64,000 nt of DNA from an uncultured delta proteobacterium. GTDB taxonomy: Bacteria; Desulfobacterota; Desulfobacteria; Desulfobacterales; JAFDCJ01. The stretch's first letter is position 1, and each line of letters opens with the position of its first letter. Under the pieces are notes generated by a model. The model saw only the letters and a program-made list of their open reading frames with translations, did not search any database and was not told the origin of the DNA. Of the stretch, positions 8,413-57,884 are shown piece after piece. The translations under genes were made by a program, and so were the position numbers. The stretch lies in contig CAVYNY010000020.1 of the NCBI GenBank assembly GCA_963769935.1, forward strand, positions 448,001 to 512,000, read 5' to 3'.

Positions 8413-8860
8413 GTCAAACCGGCCCTCGAAGAACACCTTGTGTATGTCAAACGGCTTCATCAGGACGGTTTGGCCCGAGGACACGGCAGGGTATATCTAC
8501 CTCATGCGCTCGCAAAAAAATATCCGAATGCAGATAGACAGTCGGGGGTGGCAGTACGTGTTTCCCGCGAAAACATTGTCCAAAGATCCGAGATCCGGGA
8601 TGATAAGAAGACATCACCTGCATGTCAGCAGTATTCAGAAAGCCATTCGAAAGGCCGCAAATTTGTGTGCAGTTGTCAAGCCCGTCGGGTGTCATACTTT
8701 GAGGCACAGCTTTGCCACCCACCTGCTGGCGGAGGGCTATGATATCCGTACAGTGCAGGAGCTATTGGGGCACAAGGACGTCAGCGCCACCATGATTTAC
8801 ACACATGTTCTAAATCGCGGGGGAAAAGGAGTAAGAAGCGCCCTGGACTTTACGGCATAA
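8413..8860 (+). pseudogene. intI: Integron integrase, 5'-truncated and frameshifted
   Basis: IntI-specific insertion patch [33 protein letters not shown], +1 frameshift in the G run at 8544-8548, then [50 protein letters not shown]. Confidence 0.92.
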
Positions 8861-8956
8861 TTTAAGTGTGCCTGACTTAGGAATATACATTTAACCTTAC
8901 ATTATTTTACGAAATGATGCTTGAACCTAAATTCGAGCCAAAGTGCTCAATGGATG

Positions 8957-9655
8957 TTATAAATTATTCTTTTCTAAAATTCGCCGCAGGTCCGCAATGT
9001 GGCGGGCCGGATATACACCGGTGGGGCATACCCGGCTGCAGTTTAAGGCGCGTTCACACAGGTGTTGACCGCGCATGCTTCCCGCCAGCGACATCAGATC
9101 TTCTTCGTTTTGCGGCGCTTTCTTCAGTTCGCAATTTACAGCGGCGAGTACAGCCGGTCCTAAGAATCCGGCATTTTTCTCCGTCACCGGGCAGGCGGAA
9201 ACGCAGGCGCCGCATTCGATGCAGTTTTCGAAGCGCGTAAATTGATGGAAGCCTTGAGGCTGGTTGGTGCTTTTTACTTGCTCGGACTTTTTCAAATAAC
9301 GCCATTCTTCGGACAGATCTGCGTATAATCGGGTCATGTCCACGACCAGATCACCGATGGGGCTAAAACCCTCTAGGGGGGTGAGGGTGATGGTGTCGCC
9401 TTCCAACTCGTGAATTTTCGTGATGCAGGTTAAGCGTTCCTGACCATTAATTTTGCAGGCACAGGTGCCGCAGGAAGAATGATGACAGGAGTGGCGGTAC
9501 ATCAAGGTTTTATCCTGCTCGAGACGAATCTTTTCAAGAGCATCAAGGATACTTGTGTCGGGGTCCACTTCGACGGTGAATTCCTGTAACCGCGGCGGGT
9601 CGATATGGTTCGGTTTGTAGCGCAGTATTTTAAATGTTGTTTTTTTAATTGGCAT
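8957..9655 (-). CDS. SdhB/FrdB-like iron-sulfur protein
   Basis: YRHSCHHSSCGTC...C (2Fe-2S), CIECGACVSACP and C....NC..VCP clusters; start re-placed at ATG 9655. Confidence 0.85.
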   Translation of the reverse strand: MPIKKTTFKILRYKPNHIDPPRLQEFTVEVDPDTSILDALEKIRLEQDKTLMYRHSCHHSSCGTCACKINGQERLTCITKIHELEGDTITLTPLEGFSPIGDLVVDMTRLYADLSEEWRYLKKSEQVKSTNQPQGFHQFTRFENCIECGACVSACPVTEKNAGFLGPAVLAAVNCELKKAPQNEEDLMSLAGSMRGQHLCERALNCSRVCPTGVYPARHIADLRRILEKNNL

Positions 9656-9683
9656 AATATCGGTTCTAGAGCTTTTTTTGGGA

Positions 9684-9862
9684 CACGGATTTACACACGA
9701 GATCTGCACGGATTTTTAGAGTGCTTTTACCACCCGCTTCAGGCTTCGCTCTTCGAGCTACGACCCGACAGATCGCTCGAGGCATTGAGAGCACGGAGGT
9801 ATTCATTTTTTTTGACTTGCAGGAAGACGACTGCAAGTCAAAATCAAACTGCCTGCCGAGGA
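9684..9862. repeat. Intergenic miniature element with 30-bp REP-like insertion
   Basis: CACGGAT repeats, CACCCGCTTC[9742-9771 insert]TCGCTC motif, hairpin TTTTGACTTGCAG/CTGCAAGTCAAAA; related (reverse) to 28656-28834. Confidence 0.6.
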
Positions 9863-9947
9863 AGTTCATTGTATAGACTCATAAACTTACCAACTCAAGA
9901 ACTTATCAGCTATTTTATTGTCTGCGCCAGTTGGCGTCCGTCGGCGG

Positions 9948-11117
9948 TTAAATGCGAGGCCCTTTATAAAACAACCGGTAGTGAAGCAACTTTGCGGTTT
10001 TGGTCCTGCAGGCTATGTTGCGGCCGGTTTTTTTGCAAATCAAATCCGCCGTTTTTTCGGCCATGGCCCGCAAAGTGGTGGCTTTGCCCCCGATGATCGA
10101 CACCAACCCTTCCAGCTGATCCCTTTGATAGTGATCAAAGCAGTCAAAGGTGCGGCTGATCCGCTGCGGATTTTGGGGTGCTTGCTGCACCAGCAAAGGC
10201 CGCGGCGCACACCAGATCGAATGAATGGCGGCCGTTTTAGCAGACGGAACCATCTCGGCGCACTGATCCACAATTTTTGTCACATGCTCCGGCGGATAGT
10301 TAGTTGTATCCGGGTCCTGTGCCAGCCAGAGGGTGGTTCCGAGCACCGAAAGCCGGCGCTGGGGAACGATGATGTCGGCTTCATCGGCCGGGTTGAGCCG
10401 GTTGATAACCATGTTTGCCAACCGGCCTTTTACGGCCACCATGACGCCGGGGCCGGGCTGGAGCGGCAATCGAATTCCAGCCAGGTCACAAATATTCCCC
10501 GACCAGGCGCCGGCGGCATTAACTATGATATCCCCCTTGACATCATACTCGCGGTGAGTCTGATGCTCGAATATACGGACACCGGTAACCGTTCCGTTGG
10601 TTTTGTGAAAGCCGACGACTTCTGAGAAGTTGTGCAGCCGGGCACCATTGGCGGCGGCCGTGGCATAAAAATGCATGGGCAGACGCCAGGCGTCCATGGT
10701 AGCGTCCGGTATCCGAACGGCAAGCTTTAAATCCGAATTTAGCGCCGGCTCTACAGCCAAAGCCTGTTGGGGGGTCAATTCTGCGACCGGAATGCCGCAG
10801 TCCCGGCAGCTTGTCAGGAAGACGTCGCGATAATTCAAATCCGTTTGATCCAGCGCCACGAAAAGCCCGTCGTTTTGTTCAAAGGCCTCCGGTGCAATTT
10901 TGCGCAGGATTTTATTTTCCTGAATGCACTCGCGGGCGGCTGCCGGATCGTGGACGGCATAGCGGGCGCCGCTGTGCAGCAGGCCGTGGTGCCGGCCGGT
11001 GGTGCCGGATAAAAATTCCCCCCGTTCGAAAAGCGATACCTCAAACCCTCTCAGCGTCAGGTCGTGGGCCAAGGCCGCCCCGGTTCCGCCGCCGCCGATG
11101 ATCACGATATGTTCCAT
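9948..11117 (-). CDS. FAD-dependent oxidoreductase, anaerobic glycerol-3-phosphate dehydrogenase subunit A-like (short form)
   Basis: GGGGTG FAD site, GTTGRHHGLLHSGARYAV.D, GGKATTLR.MAE; no C-terminal BFD domain. Confidence 0.85.
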   Translation of the reverse strand: MEHIVIIGGGGTGAALAHDLTLRGFEVSLFERGEFLSGTTGRHHGLLHSGARYAVHDPAAARECIQENKILRKIAPEAFEQNDGLFVALDQTDLNYRDVFLTSCRDCGIPVAELTPQQALAVEPALNSDLKLAVRIPDATMDAWRLPMHFYATAAANGARLHNFSEVVGFHKTNGTVTGVRIFEHQTHREYDVKGDIIVNAAGAWSGNICDLAGIRLPLQPGPGVMVAVKGRLANMVINRLNPADEADIIVPQRRLSVLGTTLWLAQDPDTTNYPPEHVTKIVDQCAEMVPSAKTAAIHSIWCAPRPLLVQQAPQNPQRISRTFDCFDHYQRDQLEGLVSIIGGKATTLRAMAEKTADLICKKTGRNIACRTKTAKLLHYRLFYKGPRI

Positions 11118-15270: not shown

Positions 15271-15545
15271 AAATGACGAATGTCGAATGAAGGGATTCTA
15301 TCTTTATTTTAGATTTTGAATTAGGGATTTCGGATTGGATCAGCAAAGAGCATAGGGCTTAGCGCAAAGAGTATAGGTCTAGCAGGCAATAAATGAGCAA
15401 CATCCTATTGCACCCAACGAACCCAACGATCTAAACCATCCCAACGTTCCAAATTTATCCTATGAATTATACGAAGTATCAGCGAAGCGAATTTCATCGG
15501 GACCATCCAAACGAACTAAACGAACTTAACGCCATGCGCTAGGCG
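15271..15545. repeat. Composite intergenic region of 7- and 9-bp tandem repeat modules
   Basis: GAATGAC/GAATGTC heptamers (cf. 49601), GAGCATAG/GCGCAAAG modules (cf. 54617), CCCAACGAA/CTAAACGAA nonamers (reverse of 50082, 57632). Confidence 0.65.
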
Positions 15546-15729: not shown

Positions 15730-18700
15730 ATGCATCAACAAGAACTCGTCAATTTGCTTGAATTTACAGGCAAGGACCCTACCAGGCTGGTCTTTGAGGA
15801 TGAACTCACCAGCGTGTACAACCGGCGATTCCTCTTCCAGTATTTTCAGTCCAGAATATCATGGGAGGATCTGTCGAAGGATCCCCTTTCGCTGATTATG
15901 ATGGACGTTGACAATTTTAAAGGCGTCAACGACACATACGGGCATCAGGTCGGTGACAAGGCCTTGGTCTGGGTGGCCGATATCCTGCGCGATGTGGCCG
16001 GAGATGACGGCTTGCCCATACGCTATGCCGGCGATGAATTCATGGTGTTGTTTTTGCATTGCGACAAGCAAACGGCACTCAAGCTGGGCAATCGTTTAGT
16101 CAACAAAGTGCGTTCGGAGGCTTTCAGGTTTGACGGCAACCATAAGACACTGCCGATCACCCTGAGTCTCGGGGTCGCCTCGGCCCCCGAGGATGCGAAG
16201 ACCGGTAAAGGCTTGATTCAACAGGCGGACGTTGCCCTTTACTTTGCGAAAAGCAGCGGTCGGGACTGCCTGGTGAATGCCAGCGAAGTTGTCCAGGAAG
16301 CCGTATTCGACAAAACCGCCATCAACCAGCTTAACGAAGTCAAACTGGTCGGCCGGGGACCTCAGCTGTCCCAGGTGAGCGAGGCGTTGAATAAATTCGG
16401 CCAGAAACAAAATCAGATGTTGATTGCCGAAGGCTCAGCCGGACTCGGCAAAACCGAGTTTTTAGATACCGTGCGGCGCAGTCTGGCCCGCACCAAGGCC
16501 TGGCGCATAAAGGTCAGCGGCGACCAGCAGGAAATGTTTCGCCCCTATTACCTGATGACCAGCATCCTGGTCAACCTGCTTAACTACCGCGGCGACCAGG
16601 GAACCGCCATCATCAACAGCTTGAGTAAAAGCCATCAGGCCTATATCGGCAAAATTCTGCCCCAGCTGACCACGGAGTCAGCACCTGCGGAAGATGAGGA
16701 TAATAGTTCCAGCCGCAAAGGCATATTTACGGCCCTGGCGCATTTGTTTATAAAGGCCGCCGCCAATCGCCCCGTTATCCTGTTTCTGGATGATCTGCAT
16801 CTGGCCGACGAAGCATCCCTGATTATGCTGCGTCAGCTGCTGTTGCTCAATAATTTCCCCCTTTTCATCTGTGGTGCGGCCGAAAGCATTCAGGAATCCG
16901 ACCGGGCCGAGAACAAGATTCCCCTGCACCGATTTTTCGAAATATACCAAAAGACGCTCGGTATCCGGACGATAACCCTGACACCGCTGACCGCCGCTGA
17001 TATCACCAAACATATTCAAGGATTATTTCCGAATATAAAGCTGCCTCCGGAGTTTGATCAGGAGATTGTCCGCATCAGCCAGGGCAATCCGCTTTTTATC
17101 AGTGAATTGCTGCGTAAACTGGTGCTTGATCGTAAAATCACCCTGGTGGGGCAGAAATGGACCCTTGAACAGCTGGAAGAAGGGTATCTTCCCAAAACCC
17201 TGGAAGATATTGTGACCCAAAAAATTGCCGCGCTGGATGAAGAAAGCCGCCTGATTCTGGATCAAGTTTCAGCCTTGGGGGGGGATGTCTCCCTGAGTAT
17301 GCTGGTGGGAAGTTCCGATCAGATGGAAACCAGGGTTTTAGAATTTATCGATCAGGCGCGCGCCCAGGGGCTTGTCAGCACGAATTTTCAACTCAACGAT
17401 GAAATTATTACGATCCTGGGAAAGCAGGTGCTGGCTATCACCTACGGTGCCATCCAGCCGGATCGCAAACATCAATTGCACGAACGCATCGGCAATTACC
17501 AGGAGACCCTTTATGAGCGCCAGCTGCTGCCTTCTGCGGCCACCCTGGCCTACCATTTCAAGCGTTCGACCAATCAGCAAAAAGCCGTGCGCTACGAAAA
17601 AATCCAGGCCATTGCCAACAATCGCAGTTTTAACGGTCAGGAGGCCGTGGCTTACACCGTTGAGGCCCCCGGGGAGACCACTGAAATTGATGTTCCTCTA
17701 AAGCCCGAAGACCTGAAGCGCGTGCCCGAAATCATTCGCGATTTTATGGTGGCCGTGCGCAATTTCAAACTCTACCCCCCGGGCAGTAAATCAATTGAAA
17801 TGATCAATCAGCAGTTTAAGGCCTCCCTCGATCAAATTCTGTCCGGCAACGAAACCTTAAATATTGTTCAGGTAAAGAACTCCATTCTGATAAACGGTCA
17901 AAAGATCGATGTTTCCGAATATAAGTTGGTGATGGATACCTTTTTGAAGCTGCTCAATCGCGTTGAGCTCAAGGGCCTTGCGTTTCACAGCGGCGTCACC
18001 GAGCAGGAGCTTGAAATACTGCTGCAGACACTTGGCAAAACCGATAAAAAGACATTTGATGCCGGCTTCTGGGACAATTTCTCCACCGAACACCGGATCA
18101 GCAACATCGAATTAAAACAGATCCAATATGCCGTAAAAGTCAAGGCCGTCGCCGGCGCCGGGCCCGGCCCGGCCGCCGCCCCGGGGCAAACGCCGGCCGT
18201 TTCAGCACCGACCGAGCAGCTGACATTGCCGCTCGGCCACCAGGAGATGAAAGCGATTCCGGAAATTCTGCGTAATCTGGTTGCTGCGGCGCGCGTGATA
18301 AAGCTCTATCCGATAAAAAGCAAGTCGGTTGCCAACACCATCAACAAACTTCTGGAGAACCTGCAGCGATTTTTTACCACCCAGCGGGTTCTGGCTTTTT
18401 CGCGCGCCGGCGATACGCTGCTGGTCAACGGTGAGAAGCTGGATACTTCAGGCGCTTCGGAGTTTCGAGGGCTCGCCGACAATTTTCTGACATTGCTGGG
18501 TGAGATCGGGCTGGAGAGTATCACCTTTCTGGAAAGTATTTCCGTGCACCAACTGGAAACATTTATCGGGGTACTGGGCGATTTCCCCGAATCGGAAGTT
18601 AATACGGACTTCTGGAAGGTTCTGGCTGAAGAACAGGGCCTGACTGCGATTTTATTTGACCAGCAGTTGTATGAAATTCAAGTAGCGCATAGCCTGTCGG

Positions 18701-19992
18701 CCGGGGCGACCCCCGCGGCCGGCGGTGAACCTCCCATGATGATGCTCAAGGGCATCCGGGACGAACCCATTGCGCCGGAGCGCTTTGAAAAATACCTGGA
18801 TGACCTGCCTGAACAGGTCAATGATTTATTTTTCGATGGTAAGCCGGCCTTAATCGAGCAGGCGGTCTATCGGGTCTACTTGGGATTGCAGGAGCGCGAG
18901 CTGATCATGCGCAAGAAAGTCATCGACGTTTGGCGCCTGATACTGAACCGCTTGACGCTGGCCTATCAGCATGATTTTGCCAAAATCCTGGCCGATCCGC
19001 TTCTGACCGATTTCGACGTTGAAAAAGAACCCAAGATTATTGTGGAGATGGCCTCGCTGTTGAGCCGGTTGGTGACGCTTTTTATTCAGTTTGTTGAATA
19101 TCCGCTGGCATCCCGTATTCTCGGGCATCTTGACAAACGGTTTCAAAAGTTTAAGCAAGCGAAGGATTCCAATGCCCAGCTGCTGGTGCGCAGCATGAAT
19201 CGGCAACTGGAACCCATGGCCCAGGAGCTTCTGATAGAGGATCTCAAATCCGCCGACGCTGCCCGCCAGCGCAATGCCGCTCAGCTTTTGGGCAGCTTGC
19301 GGTATGTGGCGGCGCCGATGCTGATGGAGATTATTCAGCGCGAAGATAATTATCGCGCCCGGCAAATTGCCGTCATTTTGCTGGAGAAACTGGGACCCAA
19401 AGCGGTTGCGCGTCTCAAGCGGTTGCTGGTGCTGGAAATCAGTGCGGAGGAGCGGGCACGGATTCTGGATGTTATTGATGCTCTGACCTCGGATTTGAAA
19501 ACCGAGTTGTTCCATGCCTTGGGGGATGAAGATCCCAACGTGCGGCGCGCAGCCTATCGACTGGCGGGGCGCCTGAACGACAGCCGGATGGTGGAATGGC
19601 TGCGTGAATTTATGCAAAGTCAGAAGCCCGCCCTGGCGGCCAGCGCCGTCAAATGCCTGGGTAAGCTCAAGCCGCCGGATGTTGAAGTCGAATTGATTGC
19701 CCTGTTGAATTCCACCGGCGACGATCAACTGCGCATTGCCTGCTGCCGGGTGCTGGGTCAAATTGCCAAGCCGGTCAGCATCGATGTCTTGTTCAAGCTT
19801 TTGCTGCCCAAAAGGTCTTTCCCTCTTCGTAAAAATCATAACTCCCGGGTTCGGGCGGCGGCCGCCTTTGCGCTGGGGCAAATCTCCCACCCCAAAGCCG
19901 TGGAGAGCCTCGCCAGATTCGTTGAAGACCGCGACCCCCGCGTGCGTGAAATTGCGCGCAAAGCGACGCAATCACCCGCCTCCCCAAGCTAG
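15730..19992 (+). CDS. 1420-aa diguanylate cyclase-like protein: GGDEF + STAND/AAA ATPase + duplicated LYP domain + HEAT repeats
   Basis: DELT..YNRR, DVDNFK.VND.YGH..GD, RYAGDEF; GSAGLGKT, ILFLDDLH.AD, GNPLFI.EL; KLYP motif twice; C-terminal D....VR.AA..ALG repeats. Confidence 0.85.
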   Translation: MHQQELVNLLEFTGKDPTRLVFEDELTSVYNRRFLFQYFQSRISWEDLSKDPLSLIMMDVDNFKGVNDTYGHQVGDKALVWVADILRDVAGDDGLPIRYAGDEFMVLFLHCDKQTALKLGNRLVNKVRSEAFRFDGNHKTLPITLSLGVASAPEDAKTGKGLIQQADVALYFAKSSGRDCLVNASEVVQEAVFDKTAINQLNEVKLVGRGPQLSQVSEALNKFGQKQNQMLIAEGSAGLGKTEFLDTVRRSLARTKAWRIKVSGDQQEMFRPYYLMTSILVNLLNYRGDQGTAIINSLSKSHQAYIGKILPQLTTESAPAEDEDNSSSRKGIFTALAHLFIKAAANRPVILFLDDLHLADEASLIMLRQLLLLNNFPLFICGAAESIQESDRAENKIPLHRFFEIYQKTLGIRTITLTPLTAADITKHIQGLFPNIKLPPEFDQEIVRISQGNPLFISELLRKLVLDRKITLVGQKWTLEQLEEGYLPKTLEDIVTQKIAALDEESRLILDQVSALGGDVSLSMLVGSSDQMETRVLEFIDQARAQGLVSTNFQLNDEIITILGKQVLAITYGAIQPDRKHQLHERIGNYQETLYERQLLPSAATLAYHFKRSTNQQKAVRYEKIQAIANNRSFNGQEAVAYTVEAPGETTEIDVPLKPEDLKRVPEIIRDFMVAVRNFKLYPPGSKSIEMINQQFKASLDQILSGNETLNIVQVKNSILINGQKIDVSEYKLVMDTFLKLLNRVELKGLAFHSGVTEQELEILLQTLGKTDKKTFDAGFWDNFSTEHRISNIELKQIQYAVKVKAVAGAGPGPAAAPGQTPAVSAPTEQLTLPLGHQEMKAIPEILRNLVAAARVIKLYPIKSKSVANTINKLLENLQRFFTTQRVLAFSRAGDTLLVNGEKLDTSGASEFRGLADNFLTLLGEIGLESITFLESISVHQLETFIGVLGDFPESEVNTDFWKVLAEEQGLTAILFDQQLYEIQVAHSLSAGATPAAGGEPPMMMLKGIRDEPIAPERFEKYLDDLPEQVNDLFFDGKPALIEQAVYRVYLGLQERELIMRKKVIDVWRLILNRLTLAYQHDFAKILADPLLTDFDVEKEPKIIVEMASLLSRLVTLFIQFVEYPLASRILGHLDKRFQKFKQAKDSNAQLLVRSMNRQLEPMAQELLIEDLKSADAARQRNAAQLLGSLRYVAAPMLMEIIQREDNYRARQIAVILLEKLGPKAVARLKRLLVLEISAEERARILDVIDALTSDLKTELFHALGDEDPNVRRAAYRLAGRLNDSRMVEWLREFMQSQKPALAASAVKCLGKLKPPDVEVELIALLNSTGDDQLRIACCRVLGQIAKPVSIDVLFKLLLPKRSFPLRKNHNSRVRAAAAFALGQISHPKAVESLARFVEDRDPRVREIARKATQSPASPS

Positions 19993-20813: not shown

Positions 20814-21033
20814 GTTGATCGAGTTGCGGGTTTCCGGTTTGCGGGGCGAAGACCCCAATGGGCCGGAACCTGAAACCTGCCTTCCGGCCTCTACTTTCCA
20901 CTTTTTTCCCGCTGTCATTTGTTTTCTATTTCAAGTATATCACCGGCCCTGAGTCGTACTGGTCCGCCACGAAGAGTTGAACAAGAAGTCAAGTAGTGGA
21001 ATGCGAGTTGTGGGTTACGAGTTGCGGGGCGCG
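20813..21033. repeat. Heptamer arrays flanking the island left boundary
   Basis: GAGTTGC/GGGTTTC array at 20813-20850 with inverted GAACCTG/AAACCTG; second GAGTTGT/GGGTTAC/GAGTTGC array at 21003-21030. Confidence 0.55.
20926..20992 (-). repeat. Duplicated 3' end of the MBL-fold gene (island left att-like repeat)
   Basis: 20926-20970 matches 27795-27839 at 41/45 nt; encodes VADQYDSGPVIYLK* versus VADQYTSGPVIYLK*. Confidence 0.85.
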
Positions 21034-21557
21034 AACTGAGGGATGCTTCGAGATCATCGCTGATAGAGCCTATTTGGTTTATTAAGTTTATTTCTTCAGC
21101 ATTTAAAAAGAATTTGCACGCCCTAAGAATTTCACCATCAGCCACGCTATCTATCAAAAATGCAATGATCGCACTCCCGAATTATAGTATGCGAGAGTGC
21201 GATCTTGTCTATTCTTCTATCCCGGTCCGTACTGTAATCAAAAGCATAATCTTCCGCACGCAATCCCGCTGCCACAAAATCGCTCGGATCGCAGTCGACT
21301 TTAACGACAGCATTTCTCGAAATGTTACCACTTTGGAAAATCAAAGAGGGTGAGTCGATATAACTAATTGATTTAAAACGATCTCTTGGCATAATCCTTA
21401 TTGATGATGGTTTGAACGTATTATGATTATTTAAGTTTACAGGCAAATGGGCGATATAACATTGGTAGTCCAAGCCTGCTTAAGTTGGACTATCAATCCA
21501 TGGAAAAGGCCGGAACTATATCGCTAAGAAACTAATAATTGGGGAGAACAGCAATCC

Positions 21558-22043
21558 ATGAATCGCTCCATCGAATTCACCATAAAGCCAAAATGGGATG
21601 AGATCGAAAACGTCAGGAATCAGAGTACCAATTTTTTGGCCTCTCAAGGCATGTCAAATGACTCTGTACAAGCCTTTGCCATGGTTATCAGTGAGCTTGT
21701 TGAAAATAGTGTTAAATACGGAAGATTTACATCAACTCAAAGTGAAGTGATCGTCACTGTTAAGATTTCCGAAAATATGATCATCGCCGAAGTAATAAAT
21801 CCGGTTGATGGATCCGTTTACCACCACCTGAGAAAATTAGATAAGACTTTGCAATGGATTCGGGGATTTCAAGATCCGTTCCAGGCATATGTTCAAAGAA
21901 TTAGAAAAATATCCAGAAAGCCGCTGGATGATGAATTTAGTGGTTTAGGCCTAACGAGAATAGCATATGAAGGTCAAGCAATCCTTGATTTTTTTCTGAC
22001 CGAAGGCAATCAGTTGAATGTATCGGCGATTTCACACTTTTAG
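21558..22043 (+). CDS. Anti-sigma/SiaB-like Ser/Thr kinase (HATPase fold)
   Basis: ISELVENSVKYG N-box and SGLGL.RI G-box without a HisKA domain; GGGAG RBS. Confidence 0.7.
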   Translation: MNRSIEFTIKPKWDEIENVRNQSTNFLASQGMSNDSVQAFAMVISELVENSVKYGRFTSTQSEVIVTVKISENMIIAEVINPVDGSVYHHLRKLDKTLQWIRGFQDPFQAYVQRIRKISRKPLDDEFSGLGLTRIAYEGQAILDFFLTEGNQLNVSAISHF

Positions 22044-22051
22044 GAGACAAC

Positions 22052-22426
22052 ATGGGAAAACAAGAATCATATGCCAAAAATTTATTAAAAATTGAGATCT
22101 TAGAAAATGAGGACTCAATAACGACATCCTGGACCGGAAAAAGCATCGACCGCAATCCAGGCCAGTTTATTAACCCAATTTTAGTAAAGCTTGTCAATAA
22201 AAGCAATGAAGAGAATAAACGGATAGTCTTGGACTTTCGAAAGATTGTTTATATGAACTCTTCAACAATTACACCACTAATCAAAATTCTTGAAAGAGCC
22301 AATAGAGGCAAAATATATATTACCGTTGAATACAATAAGAATTTGAAATGGCAAGATCTAAACTTTTCGGCATTAAAAATATTTCAGACAAAAGATAAGC
22401 GAGTCGAAATCAAAGGAATAGAATAA
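22052..22426 (+). CDS. SiaC/STAS-like phospho-acceptor protein
   Basis: W.GKS..RNP, LDFR.I.YMNSST motif resembling SiaC YLNTSS; AGGAG RBS. Confidence 0.65.
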   Translation: MGKQESYAKNLLKIEILENEDSITTSWTGKSIDRNPGQFINPILVKLVNKSNEENKRIVLDFRKIVYMNSSTITPLIKILERANRGKIYITVEYNKNLKWQDLNFSALKIFQTKDKRVEIKGIE

Positions 22427-22430
22427 TAAG

Positions 22431-23820
22431 ATGAATCTACATACCACCGATCTGAAAGGCGACCTTATCGAGGGCGAAGCGGTTATTCCGATTGAGATAC
22501 AGTTTAAATCCAAATATTCATTTTTAGTGAAACCTTTGAATGGATACAAGTTCAAGGATGGAAATGAGTATTCCAACATTGTCATTCAAGCTCACAATGA
22601 TTCTTTTGAACTTGGATGCTGCCGGGTGTTGACTAAACGGAATAATGGCGGAAATATAGGAAGACTAATTTTTATAAATGATATTTACGATCTTGAGAGC
22701 CTAGTTCACCATCATAAATTGGTGAAGATCCAGGATGAGTTTCTTAATCTTTCACTCCTTTTGGAACGCAAAGACCAGGTTAGTGAATTCTTCAAAAACT
22801 TTGTATCAAATTTAACCTATGATTTAAATGTATATAAGTATACATTCGATAGTCTTGATGCTGAATTTGCCTGTGAATCCGTCGAAGTAAAAAAGTCCTT
22901 GGAGCAAGCCATCTTGAGAACCGAAGGGGCCGCATTTTTCAATTTTTTAGACGAAAAAACGAAGAGCTGGAAAATATAGTGAAAGGATTCAACAAATCAG
23001 AACACGAGGTTCATGGCTTTTATTTCAGAGAACCCAGCTTTGGAATACTACAACGGGTGCCCCTTTCATGGCACGGACAAATCTGAAGCCTCGAGGTTAT
23101 GCCGGAGATTCAGAAATGATGAGCATGATATACGCCAACGACTACAGGGGTGAATCGACAATTTTCAAGCTGATGCATAAGCATCGCTCAAACAGCCGGC
23201 TGTGCAGGCTGTCAGAAATAGACGACATGCAATAGTAAAAATAATTCGTCAAATAAAAGCGAGAACTAGAAGAAACGATATTCCAAGACTAAAAATATTA
23301 TCAGTTGCCGTGGGCTCAAAAGAGCTCGAGGAGCGCTTTCGACCACAGATGATTGCAGCAAACTTAGTTTTGCGTTGCTTGATCAAGATTGAGCGCGCTG
23401 CTTGAAGCAAAAGAAAGGATTCGCTAAATTGAGGGAAAGTTAAATACAAAACTCGAAGTCGATTTCCTCAACGAATCGGTGCGCACATCGCTTGCGATGC
23501 CGCAGATAGATGCAAAATGGGGGCAGTTCGATTTTATCTATTCAATGGGGCTTTTTGACTACCTTACACCACCCGCGGCATCGATGGTTCTCGGAAAGCT
23601 ATATCAGTTGCTCAAGCCCGGGGGAGAAACGGCGATCGGCAATTTCCATGCCTCAAACCCCAACCGGTATTATATGGAATACTGGCTTGATTGGGTTCTT
23701 TACTATAGAACGGAAGAAGATTTCACGAGTTTGTTAAAAGGCGTTTCAACCGCAGAGATTAAATTATTCTTCGAAGACAACGGGGTGCAAATGTTTCTTC
23801 ATGTTAAAAGGCTGGAATGA
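22431..23820 (+). pseudogene. Class I SAM methyltransferase, PhcB-like (~460 aa reconstructed), multiple frameshifts
   Basis: Frames join: ...FLDEK / EELENIVKGF..EHEVHGFYFR / QLW..APFMARTNLKPRGYAGDSEMM.MIY / AV.AVRNRR..ILSVA.G / FALLDQD / FDFIYSMGLFDYL, LKPGG, GNFH..NP.RYYMEY..DW.L.YR. Confidence 0.75.
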
Positions 23821-23905
23821 TTCCTTTCTTGATTGCATTATGGGAAAAGCGATCATGTTGAATGCTGGATCTGTTTGAAACGCTGAATTTGCTGGGGACT
23901 CATAA

Positions 23906-25265
23906 TTGCAGGGTATAACGAACCATAGACGTTCAGATGATTTTAATTTCGGTGAAGAGGATTTTAACAATTATCTGAACAGCATCATTCACAATTGGCT
24001 GGGCACATTGACGACATTGGGCTATACGCTCGTGCCGGCATTCTTCCTTCTGGACTACTTTACGATGCCGAAGGAACTGCTGCCAACTTTCGGGGTTTAT
24101 CGGCTGATTTCGACCTTATATGTCTAATCGAATATTACATCATTTGTGATATCAAACCGAGCGTATATTCATACGATCACGGTTATTTTGTTTCGCGAAA
24201 TATCGGCGGAATCATTGCCCTGATGACCGTAGACCTCGGAGGATTTAACTCGAATCATTATGCCGGACTTAACCTCGGAATCATAGGGGTTAACCTGCTC
24301 CTGCCATGGAAGAGCAGGCACTCGGCAATCAACAGCCTGATTATAATTATGTTGTATGTCGTATTTAATTTAATGGCGGATAATAATTTTAATCCTGACA
24401 TATTGGCAAACAATTTATTCTTTTTGACGTCGACCGCTATAATAGCGGTAAGCATCAATCATGTGAAGCATAACCTTATTAGAAAAGAGTTCGATCTGCT
24501 GGTTGAATTGAAGAAGGCGCGTGACGCGCTTTGGAGCGAGATGGAGCTTGCCAAGCGCATACAGACAGCATTGTTGCCCAATAAACAGAGAATAAAAGGC
24601 TTCGATATCGCGAGTGTCATGCTCCCTGCGAAGGAAGTCGGCGGTGATTATTACGACATTATTGAAACTCCAGAGGGTGGAAAATGGATTACAATAGGAG
24701 ATGTTTCAGGGCATGGGGTTGATTCGGGTTTAATTATGATGATGGCGAAAACATGCATCAGTTCGACAGTGACAAGCAATCGAAATTGTCAGCCCTCTGA
24801 ATTGCTTATTTTCGTAAACCAAGTTATAAGAGAGAACATTTCAAGGCTAGGGTCTGACGATTACATGACCATGATGGCTATCCGCTTTAACGAGTCTAAG
24901 ATGACTATCGCAGGCAAACATCAAGACGTGATTATCTACCGATCGGCCTTAAATAAAACTGAAACAGTCCCGGTAAACGGTACCTGGCTCGGAATTACCG
25001 ATAAAATTGAAAATTATCTTACAGATATAAATAAAAATATCGGAGACGGTGACATCGTTTTGTTGTTCACCGACGGTGTTACGGAAAGTATCAACCAAAA
25101 CGGTGAAATGTACGGCCAGGTAAGGTTAGAACAGTCTCTCAATCAATATGCCGATCTGCCGACAAACACATACTGGAGAAAATTGTTGAGGATGTGAAGG
25201 ATTTTCAAGAAGAGCAGTATGACGATATGAGCCTGGTAATAGTAAAAAAACGACGATCACATTGA
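23906..25265 (+). pseudogene. Membrane-sensor SpoIIE/PP2C phosphatase (SiaA-like role), frameshifted
   Basis: TM region with GGFNSNHYAGLNL..LLPW; ELAKRIQ.ALLP, EVGGDYYD, GDVSGHG, LFTDGVTE, final DDMSLV motif in a shifted frame ending TGA 25265; start uncertain. Confidence 0.8.
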
Positions 25266-25295
25266 TGACCCCATGTTAGACAAGGATTTTATGCT

Positions 25296-27621
25296 TTGGG
25301 AAAATCATTTATGATATCAATGATAAATGATTCAGATGAATTCCAGATGAATTTGGTCACTTTGTCTTTTCATCAAGAATTCGAAAAAAAATTCCGCCGG
25401 GAGTATTTCAGAAAATCCCTAAAATATGTCCGCAAATCCATGCTCCTGGCAATTTTCTTCTATGGATTATTTGGCATCCTGGATGCTTTGATTGTTCCTG
25501 AAATCAAAGAACAAATCTGGGTAATTCGCTACGCAGTTTTTGTGCCCTATGTCTTTTTGATGTTCCTGTTTTCTTTTACCGGTTATTTTGCAAGGCACTG
25601 GCAGATCTGTGTTGCTACTATTATAGTAATTGCTGGATTGGGTATTATCGAAATGATTCTAATTGCACCCTATCCGGCGAACTATCTTTATTATGCCGGT
25701 TTGATTCTCGTTATAATCTTCGGCTATACATTTTTTAAACTCAGGTTTATTTGGGCAACCTTGGCAGGCTGGATAAGTCGTCATCGCATACGATGCGCTG
25801 CCGGATGGGTAATTGATACACCGATTCACATATTCTTAAGCAACAATTTCTTCTTTCTGTCGGGTAACATCATCGGTATGTTTGCATGTTATTCGATCGA
25901 GTTATATTGCCGCAAGGTGTTTATTAAAACCCGTTTGCTAAAAGCTGAAAAAAGGAAAGTCAAAGCCTCGAATCGTGAGCTTGAAAAAAGAGTCAGGGAA
26001 CGTACGACGCAATTGGTCGATATAAACAATGAGCTGCGAAATGAGGTGACTGAAAGAAAAATAGCCGAGAATGCTGCAAGAGAAAGCGAGTTGAAATTTA
26101 AATGCTTAAGCGAAAACTCGCCGGAAATTATTTATACACTCGATTACAATGGAAGCTTCAGCTACGTTAATCCCGCCTGGGAAAAAGTGCTCGGGTACAG
26201 CCGCTCAGAAGTGCTCAGGAAATTTTTTGTTGATTTTGCATCTGAAAAGGATGTCAAAAAATATATTGGAATGTTCAAACGGATCCGAAACAACAGGGAT
26301 ACGATCATTGATGTCGTCGGGTCCTTGACGCATAAGGATGGTTCAGAGCGCTTGTTTAACCTCAGCGGGGCGCCCAATTTGAACTCAGATGGTCAGGTTG
26401 TCGGCATGGTCGGACTCATTAAAGATATCACCGAACAACAGAAGCTCCAAATGCAGCTTATTCAAGCTCAAAAAATGGAAGCTCTCGGCACGCTTGCTGG
26501 GGGAATCGCCCACGATTTCAACAACATCCTAACCGCCATTATAGGATATGGTGAGCTTGCCTCCATGGATGTCTCTGATGACGAGGTACTGGCAAATAAT
26601 ATTTGCAATATGTTAAAAGCCTCCCAGCGAGCCAAGGAATTGGTTGGGCAGATACTCGCTTTTAGCCGCCAGACCCAGGAAACTCTGAAACCGGTTGAAA
26701 TCAAAAATATAGCCGGGGAAGTTTTAAAGCTGCTAAGAGCTTCGCTGCCCAGCACTATTGAAATCCGTCCCGACATAGACCCGGAGTGCGGAATTGTGGA
26801 GGCTGTTCCCTCCCAAATACATCAGCTGTTGATGAATCTTTGTACGAACGCTGCCGCGGCAATGGCGGCAGATGGAGGATTGCTTGCAGTAAGTCTTAAA
26901 AATGAAAAAATCGACCGTTTTCAGGCTAAAATGTGTCAGAATATAGAGCCCGGCCTTTATGTCGTCTTAACCGTTAAGGACACCGGGCAAGGGATGGCGC
27001 CTGAAATAATGGGAAAAAATATTTGATCCGTACTTTACCACAAAAGAAAAAGGCAAAGGGACCGGACTCGGATTGGCTGTCGTGCATGGCATTGTAAATA
27101 GGCACCATGGGGGGATCACCGTTGAAAGCCAGGTCGGGGTCGGCACCACATTCCGCGTATATTTGCCGGTTCTGGAGTTGGAACTAACCACCGAAAGGGA
27201 AGAACCAAACCAGAATTTGCCTGAAGGCCATGAATGTATCCTCTTTGTGGATGATGAGGAAGATATTCTCGATACCGGATCACGAATGTTATCCCGGCTT
27301 GGATATGAAGTTGTTACCAAATCAAACAGTATTGAGGGACTGGATTTATTCAGGGAAAATCCTGAGCGGTTTGATTTGGTGATAACCGATATGACCATGC
27401 CTAAATTGACGGGCGACAAATTGGCCCGTGAGCTGATGCAGATTCGACCTGATATACCGGTTGTTCTTTGCACCGGATATAGTGAAAATATAAATGAGGA
27501 AACGGCCAAGAAGATCGGCATCAAAAAGCTCAGTATCAAACCATTTGGAATTCGGGATTTAGCAGAGACAGCCCGCAGGGCGATAGACGAAGCCAAGGCT
27601 CAGAATTCAGTAATTGTCTAG
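25296..27621 (+). pseudogene. Hybrid sensor histidine kinase (TM-PAS-HisKA-HATPase-REC), frameshift near 27012
   Basis: TM YYAGLILV; PAS; LAGGIAHDFNNIL; after +1 shift [19 protein letters not shown] continues into 27073-27621 with receiver VDDE, DMTMP, KP. Confidence 0.85.
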
Positions 27622-27794
27622 TTTCAGCATGGCCGAGAAGCCATGACCACCCGTCGATTTCGGGGTTAATGATCCTGGATTTTTCCCGGAATCGTGCAGC
27701 CTGCTTTAAGCATTTAATTTAGCAATCCATGAATGCCCAACAGAAATCAAATTATTCCGCCTGCCAGCTGCCGAATTCTAATACTTCTATCCAT

Positions 27795-28604
27795 CTATTT
27801 CAAGTATATGACCGGCCCGGAGGTGTACTGGTCCGCCACTGTCAGCCGGGCGCTGCAGCGGGTGAGGGCCTGGGAGACTTCTTCGAGTGCTTTATAGGGC
27901 GTGTTGTTGATTTCACTGAGATGGGCCAGGATGACGTGCTGCAGCTTCTCATGCTGCAATTCATGGAGCAGTTTTCTGGAGTCGGAGTTGGAAAGATGCC
28001 CGGTCCGGCTTTGAATGCGCTGTTTCAGCGGCCAGGGGTAGGGTCCGGTCTCCAGCATTTGCGGATCGTGATTGGCCTCGAGAATCAGCAGCGCACAATG
28101 TTTTAAATGCTCCTTTACCATGGCGGTTGCGATTCCCATGTCGGTTGCGATGGCCATTCGGGTTCCGTTGCTGCCGACGGTAAAGCCGGCCGGGTCCTCG
28201 GCATCGTGCGATATTGAAAACGGATGGATGGCAAGATCGCGGATGTTGAAGGTGGTTCCGCATTCAAACGGCCTGATTTCATGCGGCCTGCCGATTTCAG
28301 CCGCGGCGCTGTGCGTGTGCTGATTTATGTAGACCGGCAGTTTATAGCGCCGGGAAAGGATGCCAACCCCCCTGGTGTGATCGCTGTGCTCATGGGAGAC
28401 GATAATGGCATTCAGCTTTGCCGGATCCAGCCCCCGGGAGGTCAACCGGCGCTGAATCTCCTTGCCGGACAGCCCGGCGTCGATCAGGATGGATGTGTGA
28501 CCGTTGCTGATATAAGTCGCATTGCCCTTGCTGCCGCTGGCCAGGGTGCAGACGGACAGGGAATATTCCTGGGGTTCGTCATGTTTTGGAGTATCAGAGT
28601 TCAT
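27795..28604 (-). CDS. Metallo-beta-lactamase-fold hydrolase (YycJ/PhnP-like)
   Basis: LASGSKGN, IDAG, SHEHSDH, SHDA, TD.G, EANHD, GHLSN, HLSE.NN. Confidence 0.92.
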   Translation of the reverse strand: MNSDTPKHDEPQEYSLSVCTLASGSKGNATYISNGHTSILIDAGLSGKEIQRRLTSRGLDPAKLNAIIVSHEHSDHTRGVGILSRRYKLPVYINQHTHSAAAEIGRPHEIRPFECGTTFNIRDLAIHPFSISHDAEDPAGFTVGSNGTRMAIATDMGIATAMVKEHLKHCALLILEANHDPQMLETGPYPWPLKQRIQSRTGHLSNSDSRKLLHELQHEKLQHVILAHLSEINNTPYKALEEVSQALTRCSARLTVADQYTSGPVIYLK

Positions 28605-29673: not shown

Positions 29674-31896
<2,223 letters not shown>

Positions 31897-31976
31897 TTAT
31901 GCACCGTGGTGCTATCAACATAAGGCACCGGTGCCCATCTATCTAATTAATTTTATCGAAATAAAAAATATTATAG

Positions 31977-31992
31977 GAGAATGACTATCAAT
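31977..31992. promoter_or_regulatory. Fur/PerR-box-like site upstream of katG
   Basis: GAGAATGACTATCAAT resembles the Fur-family consensus. Confidence 0.4.
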
Positions 31993-32010
31993 CAATGGCA
32001 AAAAAATATA

Positions 32011-32454
32011 TTAAACTTTCTCTGCCTTACAATCGCTGCATAAACCGAAAAAGTCCAACCTATGACTCAGAATTTTAAAATTAGTCTCTAATGCGACCTC
32101 TTTTTTCATTTCATCCAGGCTTTCCAGGTCCGGGTCGACAATTTTTTTACACTTGATACAAATGACGTGTGGATGGGGGGTCGGCTTGTTTCCATCATAG
32201 CGGTTGCTCCAATCCGGGAACCCTAACTCAAGAACTTCACCAAGCGACTTAATTAATAGAATATTTCTGTACACAGTGGCCAGACTCATTGTCGGAAAGT
32301 CTTTTTTTATCTGGACATGGATATTTTCAACACTGGGATGGCCTTCACTTTTGGCAAGGATTTTAACGATAGCCAGCCGCTGAGGTGTTAGCTTGTGGCC
32401 ATTATCCCTTAATTTTTGGATGATGATTTCAAATCTATTTTTATGATCTGTCAA
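32011..32454 (-). CDS. perR: Fur-family regulator, PerR-like
   Basis: TPQR, HPS, SLATVYR, RYD, H.H.IC..C, C..C; directly upstream of katG. Confidence 0.75.
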   Translation of the reverse strand: MTDHKNRFEIIIQKLRDNGHKLTPQRLAIVKILAKSEGHPSVENIHVQIKKDFPTMSLATVYRNILLIKSLGEVLELGFPDWSNRYDGNKPTPHPHVICIKCKKIVDPDLESLDEMKKEVALETNFKILSHRLDFFGLCSDCKAEKV

Positions 32455-43130: not shown

Positions 43131-44681
43131 CTATGTATTTTCCGGGTCCGGCTCATCGGAAGGCTGCACGGGCTCCGGGGGATCTTCCTGTTCATCGGCC
43201 GCACTTTCAACGGTTTTTCCGCCGCCGTCCTCAGTATTTTCCGCCGCCGGTGGCGTGCTATCATCTTGTTCCGCGGCTTCCGCAGCGGTACTATCTTCTT
43301 CCGCCGCCGGTGGCGTGCTATCATCTTGTTCCGCGGCTTCCGCAGCGGTACTATCTTCTTCCGCCGCCGGTGGCGTGCTATCATCTTGTTCCGCGGCTTC
43401 CGCAACGGTGCTATCTTCTTCAGCTGCCGAAGCGGCGCCGCCGGTTGCCGCGGCCGCTTTTCTGGCAGCCTCCATAAGTTTGACGGCTTTTTCTTCCCCG
43501 ATACCTCTAATTTGCATCAAGTCTTCCAGGCCGGCGCTGGCGATTTCTTCAGCCGAGTAAAAGCCGGATTCGTATAATGCATCGGCCAGACTGACACCGA
43601 CGCCCGGCAGCGCCACCAGCGAATCATAGCCGGTCTGCATGGCCTGGCTGTAACGGGTTTCACTTTTTACATCCAGGTGCCAGCCGGTGAGTTTGGAGGC
43701 CAGCCTCACGTTCTGTCCCTTTTTGCCGATGGCAATCGACAGAAAGTCGTCCGGCACAATAACTTCCATCGAGTTGTCGTCTTCGTCAATGATGACCCTG
43801 GATATTTCGGCGGGAGCCAGCGAGTTGCATACGAATTTGGCGGGGTCGACATGCCAGGGAATGATGTCGATTTTCTCCCCCCGCAACTCCTGGACGACGT
43901 TTTGAACCCGACTGCCTTTCATGCCGACGCAGGCTCCGACAGGATCAATGTCCGAATTATTCGAGGCCACGGCGATCTTGGCGCGTACGCCGGGCTCACG
44001 GGATGCCCCCATTATATTGACGATGCCCTCGGTGATTTCCGGCACTTCGGTGCGGAAGAGATTAATCAGAAAATTCGGGTGCGTGCGTGAAAGAACAATC
44101 TGCGGGCCGCGTGAATCATGCAGTACATCCAGGATAAATGCGCGGATGCGATCTCCCCGCCGATACGATTCCCTTGGCACCTGTTCCCGGACCGGCACGA
44201 TTCCATCGGTCTGCCCCAGGTTTACAATAATATCGCCCCGATCGATTCGCTGAACGATGCCGTTGATGATTTCCCCCTTGCGATCAATGAAACTGGCATA
44301 AATCGCATCTTTTTCAGCATCCTTCATTTTCTGGATGATGACCTGCTTGGCCGATTGGGCGGCGATGCGACCGAAAGTGCTGGTATCCATTTTGGTGCCC
44401 AGGCTGTCGCCTATTTCGCAGTCGGGATCCAGTTTGCGTCCTTCCGCGAGGCTGATTTCGACCTCCGGATCGGTGACGGCTTCGGCGACTTCTTTAAACT
44501 GAAAGACTTCGATTTCGCCGGATTCATCATTGTATTGAACCTCGATATCTATCTTGTTGCCGTACTTTTTTCTGGCAGCAGATCGCAATGCTTCTTCCAG
44601 AGCCTTGATAAGAACCTCACGGTCAATGCCTTTATCCCGGCTGACCTGTTCGACGACGCGTTTTATGTCTGATATAAACAT
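43131..44681 (-). CDS. nusA: Transcription termination factor NusA with acidic repeat tail
   Basis: FGRIAAQSAKQVI.Q, S1/KH domains, IG..GQNVRLA, HhH; start at MFISD. Confidence 0.97.
   Translation of the reverse strand: MFISDIKRVVEQVSRDKGIDREVLIKALEEALRSAARKKYGNKIDIEVQYNDESGEIEVFQFKEVAEAVTDPEVEISLAEGRKLDPDCEIGDSLGTKMDTSTFGRIAAQSAKQVIIQKMKDAEKDAIYASFIDRKGEIINGIVQRIDRGDIIVNLGQTDGIVPVREQVPRESYRRGDRIRAFILDVLHDSRGPQIVLSRTHPNFLINLFRTEVPEITEGIVNIMGASREPGVRAKIAVASNNSDIDPVGACVGMKGSRVQNVVQELRGEKIDIIPWHVDPAKFVCNSLAPAEISRVIIDEDDNSMEVIVPDDFLSIAIGKKGQNVRLASKLTGWHLDVKSETRYSQAMQTGYDSLVALPGVGVSLADALYESGFYSAEEIASAGLEDLMQIRGIGEEKAVKLMEAARKAAAATGGAASAAEEDSTVAEAAEQDDSTPPAAEEDSTAAEAAEQDDSTPPAAEEDSTAAEAAEQDDSTPPAAENTEDGGGKTVESAADEQEDPPEPVQPSDEPDPENT
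43239..43421. repeat. Three near-perfect 60-bp tandem repeats in the nusA 3' region
   Basis: Lines 43261/43321/43381 near identical; encodes AAEEDSTAAEAAEQDDSTPP. Confidence 0.95.
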
Positions 44682-50081: not shown

Positions 50082-50232
50082 TGTCGTTTAGATCGTTTTT
50101 TCGTTTAGGCGGTTAAGATCGTTATGAGCGTTAGGATCGTTTTGCTGTTCAAGGTTTGGGGTTAAAAGAGCAAGAGCCATTGCCTTTCACCTTCCCAACA
50201 CTCGGTTCCGCCTTTACCCTATGCGCTCTGCC
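50082..50232. repeat. Composite nonamer/heptamer element (paralog of 57632-57884)
   Basis: TCGTTTAGA-type nonamers then GGGTTAAAAGAGCAAGAGCC.TT.CCTTTCACCTT shared with 57833-57866. Confidence 0.75.
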
Positions 50233-57561: not shown

Positions 57562-57631
57562 CGCAGGGTCTCCTTATCTTAAATAGTGAAAATCTCTCAT
57601 ACCACGGCTCGAATTTTTTAGCCAATTGTAA

Positions 57632-57884
57632 GTTCGTTTGGATGGTTTAGATCGTTCGGATCGTTTCGTTGGTTAAGATCGTTTGGATGGCTTTGATGTT
57701 CAGAGGTTCAAGATTCAGGGTTTTGGGGCTTCGCCCTCCGGGCATCCGACTTCGCTCTTTGGGCTTCGCTTTCAGCTACGACCCAACAGGTTGAGCTACG
57801 ACGGGACAAATCGACCCCACGCGCAGGGTTCAGGGTTAAAAGAGCAAGAGCCGTTACCTTTCACCTTTTACCTTTAGCCTTCCG
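57632..57884. repeat. Composite nonamer/heptamer element carrying triple-nested REP-like insertions
   Basis: Host paralogous to 50082-50232; insert 57724-57820 with three CTTCGC starts and three matching TACGAC/TCGAC ends. Confidence 0.75.

Follow-up and report, generated by a model that had tools for sequence, protein, structure and literature searches.

The 64,000-nucleotide stretch of DNA analysed here (the window, whose coordinates are used throughout) forms part of contig C20 in the 8-Mb, 41-contig genome of an uncultured delta proteobacterium. It contains an island of 6,869 bp in which five genes, all on the + strand, stand between 46-nt direct repeats: a serine kinase of the GHKL type, a small STAS protein, a class I S-adenosylmethionine (SAM) methyltransferase (MT) that resembles PhcB, and two membrane proteins with a six-helix membrane (6TM) domain in common, the first ending in a PP2C phosphatase and the second in a hybrid histidine kinase. 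We propose that this cassette makes and senses a PhcB-type signal and that its partner switch feeds back on the synthase, a reading to which we give an even chance. One part of it, a small-molecule signal with 6TM receptors, we regard as fairly probable, and another, the binding of the kinase to the MT that the models predict, as likely. Gene content and order, the insertion site, the homologies and the conservation pattern of the predicted interface were all observed directly. What is new is the joining of Phc-type signalling to a partner switch, two kinds of system that are each known singly. Literature searches in open-access coverage, outside of which lie the subscription journals with the main PhcB biochemistry, found no publication on this cassette.

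Composition and spread of the cassette

The cassette opens with an intact SpoIIAB/SiaB-like GHKL Ser kinase of 161 aa (21558..22043, + strand), whose HATPase_c_2 match (E 1.5e-4) stays below the cut-off, and an intact STAS/SiaC-like protein of 124 aa (22052..22426, +) with Ser70 as its predicted phospho-acceptor. The putative PhcB-family MT follows at 22431..23820 (+); it is frame-broken here and about 464 aa long in intact homologues, to one of which, a 464-aa protein, its N-terminal piece is 80% identical. Next come the 6TM-PP2C/SpoIIE phosphatase (~23900..25265, +, start approximate; SpoIIE E 1.4e-23), which is broken near 24114 and 25160 and has its last Asp motif in a shifted frame, and the 6TM hybrid histidine kinase with a PAS-HisKA-HATPase-REC arrangement (25296..27621, +), which carries a frameshift near 27010 and a compensated pair near 25773-25792. 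Judged by gene spacing alone, the five genes may be co-transcribed as one operon. The original prediction had drawn this set inside a repeat-bounded, AT-rich island, and the description holds, with a GC content of 41.6% in the island against 51.8% in the remaining window.

Whether the same order occurs intact in other genomes had been named as a check on that prediction, and it does. We compared the 80 best loci among 215 relatives confirmed in a scan of species genomes; they were picked on the MT alone, the neighbour profiles were built from the same 80 loci, and kin among them are not independent. The order kinase-STAS-MT is found in 74 of the 80. The 6TM-PP2C gene comes next in 70 of these 74, in three others the contig breaks off there, and in the last the 6TM-PP2C gene is frame-broken; in 24 of the 74 a 6TM histidine kinase is also present, which gives the full order seen in the window. 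The remaining six loci comprise four MT-kinase variants, one kinase-MT join and one lone MT. An apparent fusion of MT and receptor in locus L099 was dismissed as an artefact of ORF calling. By record title the loci fall into at least eight phyla, namely Thermodesulfobacteriota, Myxococcota, Spirochaetota, Calditrichota, Pseudomonadota, Fidelibacterota, SAR324 and Bacteroidota. Loci L094, L098 and L072, from the cultured isolates Saccharospirillum sp. MSK14-1 and HFRX-1 and Aquisalimonas sp. APHAB1-3, have kinase and MT genes that are intact. The MT family as a whole counts 2,179 proteins at E<=1e-10 among 7,996 scored candidates, many of them labelled '3-hydroxypalmitic acid methyl ester biosynthesis protein' in their sources. 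Within the host order the distribution is patchy, since only 46 of 301 sampled genomes have an MT-family match and only 11 a close one. The host itself is a putative sulfate reducer, on the strength of a dsrA match above cut-off and of near kin that are Desulfobacterales by record title. The idea of a system belonging to a sulfate reducer thus fits the host of the window but is too narrow for the cassette, which extends across the phyla just listed.

Beyond this core no conserved family was found in the 80 loci, receiver proteins occurring in 21 and other families in at most nine. No sigma-factor or cyclase family is conserved in the cassette across these loci, a result of the general comparison and not of a sigma-specific search. 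A PAS-GGDEF gene stands directly before the kinase in 13 of the 80, with EAL confirmed in the six that were scanned. The N-termini of these GGDEF proteins were considered as kinase- or STAS-like domains, gave no match and look PAS-like.

The host genus shows how the set can be reduced. Across 23 of its genomes the kinase lies on the same contig for 14 of 15 MT loci and the STAS gene for five, and a variant occurs in which STAS and PP2C are absent and the MT, the kinase and the 6TM histidine kinase are kept; in four variant genomes no cognate STAS protein was found. The host genome has a second, intact module of this kind (contig C36:44110-48404), with an MT, a degenerate kinase and a 6TM hybrid histidine kinase and with neither STAS nor PP2C, and this type recurs in several genomes of the genus. 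In locus L064 (~8665-10060, protein P0274) the N-terminal ~115 residues of the kinase, including the interface motif described below, are joined in-frame to the MT, and STAS is missing; this single record may be a natural fusion or a misassembly. Kinase modules that lack an MT were also seen (L125-L133), with STAS in eight of nine, PP2C in five of nine and a GGDEF gene directly upstream in three, and a GGDEF-kinase fusion exists as well (P0377). They are probably a further, unnamed Sia-like family.

Kinship with the Phc system and with partner switches

Comparison with the Phc system was made through proxies, namely Paraburkholderia and Cupriavidus proteins in place of Ralstonia PhcB and PhcS themselves. 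A plasmid of Paraburkholderia graminis is laid out like phcBSRQ, with genes for an MT, a histidine kinase and a pair of receiver proteins, and at least 120 relatives of this MT are listed, from Cupriavidus, Massilia and others. Residue R22 is invariant in 21 aligned PhcB-like proteins; it is reported as conserved in PhcB of Ralstonia, Cupriavidus and Paraburkholderia (PMC6989110). Aligned by hhalign with these 21 Burkholderiales proteins, the MT family of the cassette matched with a probability of 100% (E 4e-40) over 424 columns at 24% identity, and 26 positions are common to all MT clades tested. The original prediction of a PhcB-like MT was therefore borne out, and membership in the PhcB family is supported at the level of sequence. 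PhcB has been reported to make methyl esters (PMC6989110; PMC13220807). The model of the MT (pLDDT 90) has a beta-barrel at the N-terminus, together with a helical bundle and a class I MT domain; its matches in the fold search are mostly small-molecule methyltransferases, and a sequence search for solved relatives returned a single weak match.

The cassette and the Phc system have in common a homologous SAM MT of ~464 aa, alike over its full length, and a homologous 6TM sensor gene directly behind it. They differ in what surrounds this pair. Kinase and STAS protein stand before the MT in the cassette, its first receptor drives a PP2C phosphatase, and its core of kinase, STAS, MT and 6TM-PP2C is without PhcR- or PhcQ-type genes, so that the phcBSRQ arrangement, with two receiver proteins behind the sensor, is not the one found here. 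PhcQ was considered as an equivalent of the kinase and rejected, as there is no similarity. More distant relatives combine the MT with other domains. A distant Desulfobacterales clade has an N-terminal cNMP-binding domain in 10 of 14 scanned members (L112-L117, L119-L121 and L123) and PilZ in one (L122), its MTs lying mostly beside 6TM histidine kinases or HD-GYP proteins, and in related MT clusters PilZ is found on 10-49% of the members in the close rows. A reported effect of PhcQ on PhcB signal output is a precedent for control at the protein level (PMC6989110). Together, the cNMP and PilZ domains of the distant MTs and this reported effect suggest that post-translational control is general in the MT family.

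The 6TM domain common to both membrane proteins provides the second link. A 6TM profile built without any Paraburkholderia sequence scored 47.8 bits against the Paraburkholderia PhcS-like sensor, compared with at most 8.1 for 500 shuffles and -3.8 for the reversed sequence; the histidine-kinase-type profile scored 18.2 vs 9.8. By sequence, then, both receptors are related through their 6TM domain to the PhcS-like sensor, as had been predicted. The same profile matches human AC5 (E 1.4e-4), and AC_N was matched in 8 of 26 6TM domains. In structural comparison the 6TM model aligned with ImcA (Z 16.1, rmsd 3.3, 200 aligned), AC5 (Z 15.6, rmsd 4.4, 204 aligned) and AC9 (Z 14.7, rmsd 3.2, 195 aligned), the next row being at Z 10.1. 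Foldseek gave no row at E<=0.001 for this model, the best being ImcA (E 2e-3, TM 0.73), and a single-sequence search of the PDB with the domain found nothing. Sequence and model agree in assigning it the adenylyl-cyclase anchor fold. MASE8 (PF20968) arose as a language-model lead alone (score 0.92, MASE8 on 11-40% of members), and its Pfam model matched none of the 26 6TM domains at E<=0.05 and nothing in the host genome.

Across the loci the outputs joined to the 6TM domain are PP2C, histidine kinase, GGDEF-EAL, class III cyclase, HD-GYP and Hpt-HATPase; natural 6TM-adenylate-cyclase proteins occur in L064, L085 and L101. It adjoins 11 of 14 distant MT loci (14 fetched from ~40) and occurs in just four genes of the 8-Mb host, three of them beside an MT. 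Contig C35 (L022:5579-7945) holds an orphan 6TM hybrid histidine kinase with no MT nearby, beside what looks by eye like polyketide-synthase sequence; a trans receptor or an eavesdropper is possible. The domain resembles the 6TM anchors of class III adenylyl cyclases and ImcA in sequence and fold, and the CqsS/LqsS-type receptors, as these have been described, in its 6TM design. Such quorum receptors are reported to bind lipophilic autoinducers and can regulate a cyclase (PMC4821796). Unlike all of these, the 6TM domain of the cassette comes together with a putative ligand synthase, and five kinds of output are joined to it.

As for the switch, all three of its proteins have the sequence features of their class. 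Residues E46, E49, N50, K53, G55, S128 and G131 in the N-box and glycine box of the kinase are invariant (39/39), as are N69, S70 and S71 of the STAS protein (27/27), the serine standing at the start of helix 2, and the metal-binding aspartates D252, D270 and D394 of the PP2C domain in a 23-row alignment. Ser70 aligns with the acceptor phospho-serine motif of TM1442/SpoIIAA (SpoIIAA S58) and corresponds by motif to SiaC T68 (10.1101/674879), which agrees with the phospho-acceptor that was originally predicted. The nearest solved relatives by profile are SpoIIAB for the kinase and TM1442/SpoIIAA for the acceptor. All 39 kinases and all 27 acceptors match the slr1658/slr1659 models, below their cut-offs (e.g. 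47.7 vs 100 bits), and weak DUF6272 matches were found in 16 of 27 kinases. Likeness to the Sia proteins proper is lower. Of the 39 kinases, 14 matched the NCBIfam SiaB model weakly, at best with E 2.3e-4, and the first member reached 20.4 bits against a cut-off of 85. The acceptor reached 14.8 vs 150 bits with NCBIfam SiaC and 26.6 vs 24.5 with Pfam SiaC, and solved SiaC was unmatched at E<=1. The PP2C protein scored 51 vs 700 bits with the SiaA model, in a match confined to the PP2C domain.

It follows the pattern of SiaABCD in Pseudomonas aeruginosa that a PP2C protein, a GHKL Ser/Thr kinase and a small acceptor occur together with the phospho-site in the same position, and to this extent the Sia-type switch of the original prediction stands. 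Kinase and acceptor are nonetheless nearer to slr1658/slr1659 and SpoIIAB/SpoIIAA, and all three proteins lie far below the NCBIfam SiaA/B/C cut-offs, so by sequence the switch appears to be of the partner-switch type and not SiaABCD proper. The phosphatase, moreover, carries a PhcS-like 6TM sensor. Nor does a SiaD-like cyclase belong to the core: the island has no SiaD-type cyclase, the upstream PAS-GGDEF genes of the 13 loci are built differently, and the predicted target of the kinase is the MT. SiaD is bound by the acceptor SiaC and not by SiaB (PMC7278518), in contrast to the cassette, whose predicted effector is an MT held by the kinase. With SpoIIE/SpoIIAA/SpoIIAB, RsbU/V/W and slr1658/slr1659, which provide the nearest profile relatives of its kinase and acceptor, the cassette differs in lacking a conserved sigma factor and in having a family-specific helical motif in the kinase that is tied to the presence of the MT.

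The predicted kinase-methyltransferase contact and the proposed circuit

Because no sigma factor or cyclase is conserved and the STAS-less variants keep the kinase beside the MT, these two proteins were modelled together. The complex of two kinase copies and one MT, taken from the intact locus L033, scored 0.78, compared with 0.02 for the best of three controls; the score mark used was reached by 116 of 157 solved pairs and by 2 of 215 mismatched pairs. Runs shared at least 87% of contacts, with a partner pLDDT of at least 85, and the search found no solved MT relative whose complex the prediction could have copied. On the kinase the predicted interface comprises residues 88-120, a family-specific helical motif, and one sheet face.

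The conservation pattern of the kinases agrees with this interface. In six MT-linked kinases without STAS, 81% of the residues are kept at 12 highly conserved positions of the interface, against 50% at 10 of the ATP site and 56% at 18 others. The reverse is seen in nine MT-less kinase relatives (fetched from eleven), which keep 14% of the interface and 84% of the ATP-site positions, none of them retaining D95, Q99, R102 or G103. Among the 150 best kinase representatives the motif falls from 29 of 30 to 3 of 26, and 24 of those 26 have the N-box. Locus L124, at a contig end, has a close kinase with the motif kept in a genome without an MT match.

From these elements we derive the following circuit. 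The MT would O-methylate an acid resembling a hydroxy fatty acid, as PhcB does, and yield a small lipophilic methyl-ester signal that may bind within the 6TM domains. On Ser70 of the STAS protein the kinase would add phosphate and the PP2C would remove it, sensing by the 6TM-PP2C setting the state. Unphosphorylated STAS proteins trap their kinase, as in SpoIIAA/AB. In the cassette, unphosphorylated STAS protein would engage the kinase and alter its hold on the MT, with a feedback that may be of either sign; the kinase is favoured as an activating or stabilising subunit of the MT, since it is kept beside the MT after STAS, PP2C and the ATP residues are lost. The second receptor, a histidine kinase here and a GGDEF-EAL protein, an adenylate cyclase or an HD-GYP protein elsewhere, would be the output to the cell.

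Several points weigh against this circuit. We infer product, ligand and phosphorylation from homology and models, and the copy in the window is frame-broken. Identity between the MT and the PhcB-like proteins is just 24-27%, and the latter form a separate, long-branched clade in a quick tree; therefore, the substrate may differ. The positions of PhcS L161 and PhcQ R154, by raw numbering, are unmatched in the proxies. The 6TM fold alone does not prove ligand binding, because the membrane region of ImcA is reported to mediate a protein contact (PMC10904736). With respect to the contact, the complex job was unlike the calibration in its two copies and its own alignments. The six pseudokinases come from one genus and probably reflect one event, and distance confounds the MT-less kinases, which are also more distant relatives. 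On the side of the MT the interface test is mixed: distant MTs without the kinase keep 31% of the interface against 56% of other conserved positions, and PhcB-like MTs keep 48% against 51%.

Three other explanations were weighed. Synthase and 6TM receptors could work as in the Phc system, with the switch acting in parallel on a sigma factor or diguanylate cyclase that is not linked to the cassette; the contact between kinase and MT would then be structural only or an artefact of the model. This would be in keeping with the sigma factors and cyclases on which known partner switches act (PMC7278518), with the anti-sigma factor SpoIIAB as nearest solved relative of the kinase, and with the GGDEF genes that precede the kinase in 13 of 80 loci and in three of the MT-less ones. 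However, the cassette contains no additional conserved gene family, the presence of the kinase tracks the MT and not STAS, and the interface is kept solely where the MT is present, and we consider a parallel output unlikely. The contact takes on another meaning if the MT is a protein methyltransferase that acts on the kinase or the receptors in a CheR-like adaptation, with no diffusible signal at all. Gln105 of the kinase is an apt candidate, being invariant in 39 of 39 full kinases and central in the predicted interface, where it contacts MT residues 192-197 and 418-424; the interface includes conserved MT loops beside the SAM site, and the 6TM proteins could be substrates instead of receptors. 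Yet Gln105 is changed in two of six pseudokinases that keep the remaining interface, and the residues invariant across the family are also found in PhcB-like proteins that have no such kinase. The fold matches to small-molecule enzymes and the reported methyl-ester synthesis by PhcB (PMC6989110; PMC13220807) argue in the same direction, and make protein methylation quite improbable in our judgement.

Still less probable, to our mind, is that the MT acts on a membrane lipid or acyl intermediate and its methylated product is retained in the cell's own membrane, with the 6TM proteins as sensors of internal lipid or SAM status and not of density. Such a role would suit 6TM domains that are almost without outside loops and a family whose distant members bear cNMP or PilZ domains, which point to tight internal control. 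That synthase and sensor alike are homologous to the Phc pair speaks against this role, and a public signal fits the horizontal spread of the cassette as a self-contained synthase-receptor unit and its strain-level polymorphism.

Insertion site, state of the copy and implications

The direct repeats that bound the island (46 nt, 91% identity) are att-like and lie at 20925..20970 on the left and 27794..27839 on the right. Both are copies of the 3' end of an MBL-fold hydrolase gene (27795..28604, - strand), a conserved host gene outside the cassette that served as integration target. Its original 3' end is the left repeat, now displaced and containing a 15-nt crossover core at 20956-20970; the right repeat is the replacement, by which frame and C-terminus of the hydrolase are preserved. 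The empty site is seen in three public DNA runs (X1, X2 and X3, from two studies), in which contigs pass straight from 20955 to 27825, omitting 6,869 bases with a shared core of 15 nt. As one of these runs (X1) contains near-identical island pieces in addition to the empty site, the insertion appears to be polymorphic within the species or population. Duplication of the target end and an empty allele are the marks of a mobile element, and the island arrived by integration into the end of the MBL gene. It carries no integrase of its own, the five genes filling the 6.9 kb, and none was recognised at the MBL site by eye in 11 relatives without a nearby thioesterase, where no family scan was made. 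Phage carriage found no backing, as 0 of 105 candidate stretches in viral_contigs encode an MT relative. In the 590-bp leader no ORF exceeds 108 aa, and nothing similar to this leader occurs in the rest of the genome; a promoter and terminator scan stayed at chance level. An RNA run (X9) covered only short, diverged pieces of the island and thus provides no evidence on expression, and runs X6-X8 yielded small shares on which no statement about habitat is based.

It had been suggested that an adjacent acyl-ACP thioesterase and a giant diguanylate cyclase might supply the substrate and serve as output. We ruled both out as parts of the system, because both border the site where it is empty and the thioesterase has no match in any of 100 MT loci (L024-L123). 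Among 19 loci of relatives, moreover, there are 7 in which the thioesterase is no more than 1.5 kb away from the end of the MBL gene.

The damage to this copy poses a separate question. The MT has about eight small indels (1-2 bases) and one stop at 22960-23430; the PP2C gene has at least two breaks, and the histidine kinase gene has one besides the compensated pair. So many lesions could mean that a pseudogene cassette is decaying, the more so as the second, intact MT module on contig C36 could relax selection. The breaks are, however, clustered in ~450 bp, kinase and STAS are intact, the intact MT segments remain 80-89% identical to their homologue, and the island is missing from co-occurring cells, which would reduce read depth there. 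A 159-bp contig (depth 3.3, with six other differences) also has extra bases at four break sites, where alignments with intact homologues predict them. Assembly error is probably the cause, although one shallow contig is no proof of it, and we think decay rather unlikely.

Other parts of the window outside the island hold features of their own. A 1420-aa protein at 15730-19992 combines GGDEF, AAA_16 and HEAT repeats. A 30-nt tandem repeat array lies at 43239-43429, and members of a short, dispersed intergenic repeat family occur in both orientations at 15416-15531, 50101-50193 and 57629-57867. A catalase-peroxidase-like gene and a Fur/PerR-like regulator (29674-32454) were recognised by eye from the ORF list.

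In the open-access literature covered, Ralstonia and its kin are the only bacteria for which quorum sensing by methyl esters is described. If the proposed circuit is true, this kind of signalling would extend to sediment sulfate reducers, spirochaetes, Calditrichota, myxobacteria and cultured marine gammaproteobacteria. It would also mean a new control logic, with a phosphorylation switch on the signal synthase itself. The cassette moreover pairs a candidate ligand-making enzyme with a 6TM domain of the adenylyl-cyclase anchor fold. We would go further only tentatively and with more doubt than confidence: the methyl esters by which anaerobes, spirochaetes and myxobacteria signal from cell to cell may form a large family that has gone unrecognised, with PhcB/PhcS as one of its branches. 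Each synthase in it would have a 6TM receptor of the adenylyl-cyclase type and be controlled post-translationally, here by a kinase subunit and elsewhere by cNMP or PilZ domains. On this wider reading the partner held by the switch would be an autoinducer synthase, and native ligands would be at hand for receptors that have the fold of the mammalian adenylyl-cyclase anchors.

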